A DNA stretch of 64,000 nucleotides from Psammoneis japonica. Taxonomy: Eukaryota. Each line of letters starts with the position of its first letter. Positions within the stretch are counted from its first letter, which is position 1. This document shows positions 36,431 through 38,070 of this stretch, in pieces. Location: NCBI GenBank assembly GCA_008632985.1, contig QPGO01000147.1:124001-188000 (forward strand), in the 5' to 3' direction. The translations under genes and the position numbers were made by a program. Below the pieces are notes generated by a model that worked only from the letters and a program-made list of their open reading frames with translations, made no database searches and was not told the origin of the DNA.

Positions 36431-38070
36431 GAATTGCACATGGCCTGGAATAGATTGCGCTTTTTCAGCCATCGTTATGCCGCTCAGCCCCGTGCCAAGC
36501 TTACGGTGTCCACTTCGAGAACCACATCATACTGGAACAATGAACACGAGCAAAAATTTGTTGGTGCCGGTGTCTTGTGATGGCTCGCATGTTCGATGTG
36601 GCGAAAAGCGCGGGAAATCAATAAGACTCCTACATTCGTGCAGAATTTAAATACAACAATCTTCCTACACAAATCATGGTGCAGATTTCTTCGTGAAACC
36701 CACCAATCACACAACCTCATCGTCCTCGCAAAATTTACGATCGCTCCCACTGACCCACGCTTTGTCGTGCAGGGGCACACAATTGATTCAATCGACGTGT
36801 TGCATTGACTCAATTCCTTTGAAAGCATGGATCTGTCCGAATCTGCTGTAAACAACATCGTGGTTGCACACTCCCCATCGCGCACTTCCTTCTCTGGCTT
36901 CCAATTCTCGTCATGGGCGCAGAGATTTATGTTCGCTTCTTCCGTCACCATGTTTTCGACCTCTTTCCTTGGGCATTTCCAAAGAACTGGATGTCAACGG
37001 CAAGTGAACGACTGGCTTGTGTGACATTTTCAACCAAGTTTTGTGCACCTTGACAATCACATCCAACCAGCATGCTCTTGCGTTGTCACCGCCTTGATGC
37101 AGGAGCCGGCATTGGTTGTTGGCTGCGACTGTGGAGAAGAGGATGTCAAGCACTTCTGGCATCTCTTAGTTCAAATGTTTGCTGTCTTCTGTTGCAGCCA
37201 TGCAATCAGCATTGACATGCAGAGGAGGGCGTGACACATTTTCAAAGCCCAACTTTCAACAGCTGGCAGTGTGCTTCTGTTGTTGGCGGACATCATTTTG
37301 GGAGCAAGCACCAACCTCTGCCAAATCAAAAGCTCATTGGAACAACTAAAAAATCCATTGTCTTTTTGCACAATTTGTTGAGCACATTGATGGAGAAAGT
37401 GCTTGATGCAGTCAAAGGGAACACTTCCAGCATTGGATGATCCAAGGAAAACCTTTTGACCTTGCTGGCAAATGTTGAGATTGGAGAAGTTGTTTGTGCC
37501 GCTAACAAGAAGATCGCTGGCATTGTGGTCTTTCTGCTCATTGCATTGGTTCAGGGACCTGATGCAATGCAAGAATGCACCGGGCTTGTGTCTCTGGTTT
37601 TCTGGTGCTTTGCTCCGTGGATGCTCCAGCATTGCGATGACCTGTTCCAGCCCCAGGTGATGAGAAATCCATCACTCGAGAGGCCAATTTTCTGTGCAGT
37701 TTGGCGCGTTAAACTCCTTCAATTTTGACTGTTTTGAAAATCAAAAGGTGAGTGCACACCCAAAAACACGTGCAAAGTGTGCACTCACCCTTCAATCTGG
37801 CAAAAAAAAAACAGATTTTGAAAAAGTTTGTGATGTGCCAGATGCAAAAATTTGGCAAATGATGGGGGGATCGAACCCGCTCACATCACCTGGAGCTGGA
37901 ACAGGCCATGAGGGACATTTGCTCAAATCCAAGTGCAAACGAGGACAAACTGAAATTCTCAAAGATGCTTTGGGAAAAATTGTCTTGCAAGGAAAGATTC
38001 TCAAGGTGCACTTTGATGACAAGCCACTGCCCCATCACACCATCTTTTTGCCTGACAAAAAGGAAATGCC
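36431..38070 (+). pseudogene. Decayed copy (D) of the repeated gene unit, interrupted by a MITE
   Basis: Colinear with 26990-28460. Splice donor GT->GC and systematic TA->TG/CA from ~36760 onward. Confidence 0.92.
37641..37905. mobile_element. 265-bp MITE with 22-bp TIRs
   Basis: CCTGTTCCAGCCCCAGGTGATG ... CATCACCTGGAGCTGGAACAGG (1 mismatch); the segment is absent from copies A and E. Confidence 0.85.

Follow-up and report, generated by a model that had tools for sequence, protein, structure and literature searches.

The window analysed here is the whole stretch of 64,000 nucleotides at positions 124,001 to 188,000 of contig QPGO01000147.1 (assembly GCA_008632985.1) from the diatom Psammoneis japonica. 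It is eukaryotic DNA of about 48% G+C, with a single N at 53536, and it contains six blocks from which the dinucleotide TpA (thymine followed by adenine) has almost disappeared. The observed/expected ratio (O/E) of TpA per kb is bimodal, being about 0.5-0.8 over most of the window and 0.00-0.14 in the blocks, which total 20.9 kb, or about a third of the sequence (Table 1). TpA makes up 0.32% of dinucleotides in the blocks compared with 4.24% in the remaining 43.1 kb, and both TG (O/E 1.68) and CA (O/E 1.73) are raised in the blocks. CpG is depleted there as well (O/E 0.39, versus 1.04 elsewhere), and G+C content is 0.492 in the blocks and 0.472 outside them. The longest run without a single TA is 1,389 bp (37710-39099), followed by runs of 1,344, 1,187, and 1,033 bp; at the normal TpA frequency of 4.24%, the computed chance of a 1,389-bp run is about e^-60. 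An earlier sequence-only reading had placed the signal at 36760-38070, where it is indeed real, but the signal is far larger than that interval and occupies all six blocks.

The depletion is a property of the blocks and not a genome-wide neutral decay, since normal DNA outside open reading frames (ORFs) of at least 100 amino acids (12.5 kb, serving as an unselected control) keeps a TpA O/E of 0.73 and a CpG O/E of 1.07. Block edges are sharp over about 50-400 bp, are graded, and cross the boundaries of elements. A distance of 54 bp separates the start of block b3 from the open frame (11513-12253) of a gene for a mitochondrial carrier, and block b5 extends beyond the end of copy D, a decayed gene copy described below. 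In the first ~300 bp of copy D, 7 TA are kept and 6 are changed, while beyond 36798 only 1 of 15 is kept. With TAA and TAG erased, TGA is the sole common stop codon in the blocks, and long ORFs free of tyrosine (Tyr) fill all frames: 79 ORFs of at least 100 amino acids lie in the 20.9 kb of blocks (3.8/kb, versus 2.3/kb outside), and Tyr accounts for 8 of their 11,621 residues (0.07%, versus 2.5% outside). As to their contents, block b6 holds a pseudogene from a mobile-looking family with DUF6729 and exonuclease domains, block b5 holds an insert resembling a miniature inverted-repeat transposable element (MITE), and two blocks hold dead copies from an orphan gene family.

Table 1. Positions of the TpA-depleted blocks, the copies of the orphan gene family, and other features of the window.
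Feature	Position	Strand	Description
Block b1	1-2505		Cut by the window start
Block b2	6437-8277		5 TA in 1,841 bp; TpA O/E 0.04, CpG O/E 0.33; contains copy B
Block b3	12307-15674		Strongest CpG loss of the blocks
Block b4	31324-32370		TpA O/E 0.081, CpG O/E 0.70 (milder CpG loss)
Block b5	36928-39099		5 TA in 2,172 bp; TpA O/E 0.032, CpG O/E 0.44; TG and CA O/E both 1.67
Block b6	44541-54521		Largest block, 10 kb; 31 TA in 9,981 bp; TpA O/E 0.05
Copy A	26993-28822	+	Intact; 313-codon open exon 2 (27678-28619), GT-AG intron, TpA normal
Copy B	6660-8240		Decayed; inside block b2
Fragment C	31076-31332	+	A/E family; abuts block b4
Copy D	36433-38081	+	Decayed copy of the two-exon A/E gene, intron region kept
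Copy E	54675-56330	+	Intact; open frame 55176-56213, 345-codon exon 2, TpA normal; 88% identical to copy A
MITE-like insert	37637-37909		273 bp, in copy D; gap in copies A and E
DUF6729-exonuclease pseudogene	45446-50207	-	In block b6; frameshifted, Tyr-free; located by tblastn of P0001 residues 86-1535
Exonuclease motif	48290-48307	-	Reads ...QVECAAVDAIK...; CAAVDA against the family consensus YAALD

The copies A to E of a unit of about 1.7 kb were defined by self-BLAST and a five-copy MAFFT alignment. Copies A and E each have two exons and code for an orphan protein, and the ratio of nonsynonymous to synonymous substitution rates (dN/dS) between them is 0.42. This protein has no database homologue among 2,600 candidates, so no protein outgroup is available for the A/E family. 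Block b6 ends about 150 bp before copy E, and in fragment C the TAs that have been lost are those closest to block b4. The C-terminal ~58 amino acids of the orphan protein (27678-28619; …KILKVHFDDKLLPYYTILLPD…) resemble a domain that occurs repeatedly in the terminal open frame of the window (63274-63999, minus strand), with 38% identity and E 1e-7; this region and the repeats may constitute a lineage-specific small domain family. The MITE-like insert in copy D has 29-nt terminal inverted repeats (37637-37665 / 37881-37909) with arms 90% complementary, as well as a 16-nt hairpin in its interior. In a public sequencing run the insert has a word depth of 3,706, compared with ~53 in its flanks (~70-fold), and it belongs to a high-copy family. 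Recoding the sequence as purines and pyrimidines, which was used to see past transitions, raises the identity of A and D from 78% to 90% and that of A and B from 68% to 88%. A self-comparison of the window in this recoding revealed no new homology for the remaining block sequence; a 92-nt inverted match proved to be a polypyrimidine tract and was rejected. The same comparison showed an internal duplication of ~160 bp in copy B (7554-7715 / 7756-7912).

Substitutions were polarised by treating the trinucleotides shared by A and E as ancestral, and were counted per A. In copy D, A>G is found at 23/65 adenines in TpA and at 18/353 other adenines (Fisher p 1.6e-10), and the corresponding figures for copy B are 24/57 and 35/386 (p 3.3e-9); within the blocks, the rate at TpA is 4-7 times that at other A. 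Because each TpA has an A on both strands, the ceiling for this class is 0.5, and it is therefore near saturation. The comparison of A with E shows no TpA bias (12/143, versus 0.03-0.09 in other contexts). C>T is enriched at CpG, with 21/80 against 22/272 for other C in copy D and 34/97 against 22/302 in copy B. When A is the reference and D the query, C>T reaches 0.15 at ApC, 0.06 at CpC, 0.14 at GpC, and 0.16 at TpC; an APOBEC-type signature is not seen, as there is no enrichment at TpC or CpC and CpG alone is enriched. Copy D keeps 1/24 TA sites but 12/30 CG sites, so TpA loss outpaces CpG loss; copy B keeps 0/24 and 3/30. A>T at TpA is also slightly raised, at 9/106 in D and 4/77 in B compared with 0.00-0.03 elsewhere, and the decayed copies further carry indels, frameshifts, the MITE insertion, and background substitutions. 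The nine example changes cited in the sequence-only reading can all be read in the five-copy alignment, and its assertions that A>G is concentrated at TpA over other contexts and that CpG is also converted to TpG/CpA agree with these counts and with the CpG depletion of the blocks.

Whether TA or TG/CA is the older state can be judged in three ways. A and E have in common 24 TA sites that can be aligned across the four copies. At 18 of these, TG or CA is found in B as well as in D, and the two are concordant at 10 and discordant at 8, one copy then having TG where its counterpart has CA; CpG sites are divided similarly, with 8 concordant and 8 discordant. Since TG and CA are two steps apart by way of TA, B and D lost TA independently. 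A protein outgroup is provided by the homologues of the pseudogene in block b6. At positions with Tyr in at least 50% of at least eight homologues, the 24 pseudogene residues are ten Cys, seven His, four Arg (two of these rows being overlapping alignments in different frames), one Leu, one Phe, and one Tyr. In the same comparison other residues of the window are largely conserved, with Trp kept at 11/12 positions, His at 15/16, and Gly at 40/48. For 17 stricter Tyr columns, of which the window covers 16, the window has no Tyr, eight Cys, and five His; 80 metagenome loci have Tyr at 612/786 with seven Cys and 34 His, and 40 database homologues have Tyr at 300/377 with one Cys. Finally, TpA O/E is 0.44-0.92 in all 80 of these metagenome relatives, which were found through a five-row alignment with two search patterns, one of which contains Tyr, so that depleted relatives may have been missed. 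The B/D-concordant sites are ambiguous when taken alone, but the discordant sites, the protein outgroup, and the composition of the relatives settle the direction. Paralogue parsimony, protein outgroup, and relatives' composition, as independent tests, agree in indicating that TA is the ancestral state, in line with the sequence-only reading, and no outgroup with ancestral TG/CA was found among them.

The change was made in place on DNA, because B and D both keep the intron (with the donor altered from GTAAG to GCAAG and the acceptor from TAG to CAG) and because the MITE inside D, which holds only one TA (37710), is depleted too. TG and CA outcomes alternate along the copies, the 22 outcomes in D forming 10 runs and the 26 in B forming 14, which is close to the computed random expectation, and no strand coordination of TG versus CA outcomes was seen along either copy. 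In the pseudogene Tyr>Cys occurs 10 times and Tyr>His seven times, and TG and CA are about equally raised. Both strands are affected, the choice of strand appears random at each site, and each TpA has been altered once. The sequence-only reading had regarded repeated DNA as the trigger. This is not supported, since duplicates A and E are TpA-normal and untouched although 88% identical, the domain edge lies within copy D rather than at a repeat boundary, and part of block b5 has a depth near single copy; duplication alone is not the trigger.

The few TA sites that survive in the blocks reveal a further preference. TTAA persists at 0.54 of its normal density and CTAA/TTAG at 0.26, whereas ATAT, GTAC, and ATAC are reduced to 0.02 or less. 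At sites where an A follows TA on one strand only, that strand was mutated in 3/20 events (computed binomial p ~0.003), and A>G at TpA occurs at 3/19 sites with A in the +1 position versus 44/103 without it. The base after the mutated A is most often C (35/77 events). TAA is thus a poor target, so that TTAA survives, and the preference is for T-A-(not A), which is new here.

The DUF6729-exonuclease pseudogene has a length of ~4.8 kb, and intact members of its family are ~1,500 amino acids long with DUF6729 and 3'-5' exonuclease domains (Pfam on homologues). There are 188 homologues at E <=0.001; the best is 37% identical across the exonuclease ORF, and identity in the C-terminal region reaches 51%. 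At position 48307 of the exonuclease motif Tyr is present in 50/51 homologues and the window codon is TGT, so that the change from YAAxDA to CAAVDA pointed out in the sequence-only reading is borne out. No terminal repeats flanking block b6 were found when looked for, and 1,054 ORFs from the flanks of the 80 relative loci gave no match to the window outside the pseudogene. Database homologues without Tyr (P0003, P0116, and others) span few Tyr columns. Among the relatives, three contigs with an intact gene carry end repeats, namely a 139-bp direct repeat at both contig ends in L019 (1-5915), a 235-bp repeat with a spacing of 4,915 bp in L015 (1-6101), and 24-27-nt inverted repeats, 8.4-8.5 kb apart, that enclose the gene in L024 (1-12660). 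These repeats suggest a circular, tandem, or terminal-repeat mobile element of ~5-8.5 kb that is apparently undescribed. In another metagenome relative, L065:1000-2285, TpA O/E is about 0.17-0.26 (about 0.18 across 1 kb) with normal CpG, raised TG/CA, and only three Tyr columns; a copy that underwent partial hypermutation in a different organism is a possible reading of this stretch.

The DNA between the TpA-depleted blocks carries ordinary genes, including those for an Arm-repeat protein, a mitochondrial carrier, PIG-L, a myotubularin, and a DUF3082 protein. The myotubularin ORF has named homologues from Amphora, Cyclophora, Seminavis, Nitzschia, and Bacillariaceae at 54-58% identity and from centric diatoms at 44-48%, and its top match of all is 60% identical. 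The nearest named homologues are thus those of diatoms, which assigns the window to a diatom or a close relative and not to Bigelowiella, with no close sequenced relative among the named matches. Two tandem duplications also occur in the window, one of 2 x 152 bp with 95% identity (18910-19211) within a long open frame (17974-19686), and one of 2 x ~215-230 bp with 87% identity (42811-43255).

The blocks are discrete domains of ~1-10 kb in which TpA has been converted almost to saturation into TpG/CpA, in place, on DNA, and on both strands; a slower decay of CpG to TpG/CpA goes alongside, and at a distance of a few hundred bp both genes and non-coding sequence have normal TpA. The explanation that we consider likely is a targeted, regional TpA hypermutation process in the nuclear genome of this diatom. 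The corresponding claim of the sequence-only reading, a TpA-specific A:T>G:C process acting regionally on dead sequence, is upheld by the parsimony, the outgroup, and the composition of the relatives. The process appears to be of the same kind as the TpA hypermutation reported for the chlorarachniophyte Bigelowiella natans (Mettrop et al., bioRxiv 10.64898/2026.01.13.699255). As a mechanism, a host activity would be directed at silenced or foreign chromatin, in which cytosines may be methylated, and adenine in 5'-T-A-(not A) would be deaminated enzymatically to hypoxanthine, a base that pairs with C. For the chemical step, deamination of adenine is the leading candidate, though at somewhat less than even probability. 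A wider version is possible but rather doubtful: an old defence, common to the stramenopile-alveolate-rhizarian (SAR) lineages or spread horizontally, in which a DNA adenine deaminase with the preference 5'-T-A-not-A was recruited to cytosine-methylated, silenced foreign DNA in both diatoms and chlorarachniophytes.

Several points weigh against this explanation or its extensions. The evidence consists of mutation footprints, without a rate, a timing, or proof of present activity; those in the diatom are old, while in B. natans new mutations were measured in lines, according to the accessible part of the preprint (bioRxiv 10.64898/2026.01.13.699255). TpA is self-complementary, so that chemistry directed at A and chemistry directed at T give identical footprints, and methylation of the blocks is deduced from CpG loss. 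The annotated ORFs of the window, the only sequence searched in this respect, include no deaminase and no dioxygenase. A recognisable mobile-element gene is present in one of the six blocks, and among 105 block ORFs the Pfam matches to DUF6729 and the exonuclease are weak, below Pfam's own cut-off, with three other matches unconvincing. None of the 80 relatives from other organisms is TpA-depleted, so that they give no measure of how far the process is spread. The B/D-concordant sites formally fit a change on the A/E branch, where they would appear as "C>T at CpA" (13/88 and 15/86). Contigs from the public run show 0 differences from the window over 35165-36474, 36464-36812, and 36820-37620, so up to 37620 the lack of TA in copy D is seen in the reads as well; however, the run is probably the assembly's own sample and was compared as contigs, not raw reads. 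These contigs also show a few differences from the window within 37740-39127, among them TG versus CG at 38116 and 38206, CA versus CG at 38944, and TG versus TA at 38137, which could reflect allelic variation, paralogy, or decay that is still going on.

If the thymine rather than the adenine of TpA were the base affected, it could be oxidised in silenced DNA to 5-hydroxymethyluracil (5hmU) or 5-formyluracil (5fU) by a JBP/TET-type dioxygenase, or be modified otherwise, and mispair with G to give T>C. 5-Formyluracil promotes A:T>G:C changes, and dinoflagellate 5hmU has been reported to prefer TpA and TpC. The abundance of 5hmU in dinoflagellates is reported in PMC6313786, the accessible part of which does not confirm that context. 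The self-complementarity of TpA means that T>C and A>G would leave the same footprint, and the raised A>T at TpA in both decayed copies is as expected from base-excision intermediates. This route is nevertheless unlikely, and the authors of the B. natans preprint favour adenine deamination, proposing that an ADAT2-like DNA adenine deaminase may be responsible (bioRxiv 10.64898/2026.01.13.699255). It is quite improbable that the blocks are a passive effect of ordinary TpA-biased damage or neutral drift that repair or selection simply fails to remove from heterochromatin or dead sequence. The blocks are dead and probably heterochromatic, and background divergence in them is also high, but unselected DNA outside them has near-normal TpA and CpG, A>G at TpA so far exceeds that at other A as to approach saturation, and the loss of TpA exceeds that of CpG. 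In addition, the accessible part of the preprint gives a rate in the B. natans viral regions of ~6e-7 mutations per site per generation, ~1000-fold over background, with the TpA mutations confined to some lines, as if switched on in those only (bioRxiv 10.64898/2026.01.13.699255).

The remaining alternatives concern how the sequences arose or were recorded. An assembly or base-calling artefact, such as modified bases in silenced DNA miscalled from long reads, is very improbable. The blocks do look cytosine-methylated from their CpG loss, and the run contigs do depart from the window beyond 37740, but these contigs match exactly across the positions in copy D, as far as 37620, where TA became TG or CA, the decayed copies also hold indels, frameshifts, a MITE insertion, and background substitutions, and miscalling would not alternate between TG and CA from site to site at ~95% completeness. 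RNA A-to-I hyperediting of an ADAR-like kind, with the edited transcripts then reverse-transcribed and inserted, would share the preference for a 5' T (U), which the preprint's Discussion likens to that of ADAR (bioRxiv 10.64898/2026.01.13.699255, in the accessible part). It is an extremely improbable origin for the blocks, in which the strands are affected about equally with no single-strand bias, B and D keep the intron and have no retrocopy hallmarks, and the graded edges cross element boundaries, with the MITE inside D depleted as well. The probability is negligible for reversed polarity, in which C>T at CpA/TpG, resembling the repeat-induced point mutation (RIP) of fungi, made A and E rich in TA while B, D, and the blocks stayed ancestral. 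The 10/18 sites with concordant CA or TG in B and D against TA in A and E are compatible with it, and His/Cys to Tyr is the expected product of RIP. However, at 8/18 sites the two decayed copies differ, one having TG and one CA, and Tyr is found family-wide where the window has Cys or His, so that the outgroup tests refute it. All 80 relatives have normal TpA, the frames of A and E are open (dN/dS 0.42), and their TpA O/E is like that of the rest of the genome; the outlier is the TpA O/E of 0.03-0.08, not that of 0.6.

Targeted TpA hypermutation has consequences that go beyond this window. Saturated footprints in a diatom place the process in a second major lineage, which makes it unlikely to be a curiosity of one species, and diatoms are among the ocean's main primary producers. 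The sparing of TAA/TTAA, the accompanying CpG decay, the lack of a duplication trigger, and edges graded over a few hundred bp provide handles for an enzyme search. Gene callers could report the long Tyr-free ORFs of the blocks as genes, which is a risk for annotation, and a scan for TA-free runs offers a cheap detector of dead foreign DNA. If a DNA adenine deaminase is responsible, it would be a natural counterpart of the engineered adenine base editors; a deaminase defence shared between the lineages would erase every Tyr codon and both TA stop codons, and would represent an A-directed counterpart of RIP and APOBEC, in effect a natural DNA adenine base editor.

Several known systems resemble the diatom process in part. 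Like fungal RIP, it introduces transitions at high density, within certain regions and at a specific dinucleotide, so that coding capacity is lost and dinucleotide composition is strongly skewed; however, RIP in Neurospora and other fungi converts CpA to TpA and enriches AT, while here TpA is destroyed with slight GC enrichment, and RIP is triggered by duplication, while here duplication has left A and E unaltered. The loss of CpG through deamination of 5-methylcytosine is similar in that a self-complementary pyrimidine-purine step becomes TG or CA on either strand, and such decay is present in these blocks, but it accounts only for the CpG loss, as TpA loss requires a change at an A:T pair and is faster. 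ADAR and TadA/ADAT2-ADAT3 produce A>G by way of inosine with T/U directly 5' of the edited A. As far as is known, A34 of tRNA is always preceded by U33, and the bacterial TadA substrate is U-A-C-G, with C after the A as in the commonest mutated context here; ADARs are metazoan. RNA is the substrate of these enzymes, the exceptions being engineered base editors and an activity of amphioxus ADAT2 on DNA that the preprint's Discussion cites (bioRxiv 10.64898/2026.01.13.699255).

The closest likeness is to B. natans. The sequence-only reading knew of no described system of this kind, but the same signature has been measured in mutation-accumulation lines of that species, where two integrated viral regions received 231 of the 302 nuclear point mutations and 230/231 were A>G or T>C, with all GC-biased changes placed on TpA by the authors (bioRxiv 10.64898/2026.01.13.699255, accessible part). 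In the literature, TpA hypermutation was found described solely in this preprint, and nothing was found for diatoms. The accessible portion of the Phaeodactylum mutation-accumulation paper (PMC6604790) makes no mention of TpA, and the preprint's main text makes none of CpG, an extended motif, or diatoms. As far as the preprint can be consulted, the two cases share TpA>TpG together with TpA>CpA on both strands, regionally and beside normally mutating DNA, and both genomes have clusters depleted in TpA and enriched in CpA+TpG, of which B. natans has 124, enriched in transposon and viral domains (bioRxiv 10.64898/2026.01.13.699255). They differ in host, a diatom being a stramenopile and B. natans a rhizarian, and in depth of depletion, which is saturated here (O/E 0.03-0.08) compared with a Rho of 0.45 in the B. 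natans giant-virus region, according to the same part of the preprint. In the diatom, CpG decay accompanies TpA loss, and dead copies of a native-looking gene family are among the targets. The process is therefore of a known kind, described in one 2026 preprint and met here in a second, distant lineage, where it is marked by saturation, accompanying CpG decay, and the T-A-(not A) preference.

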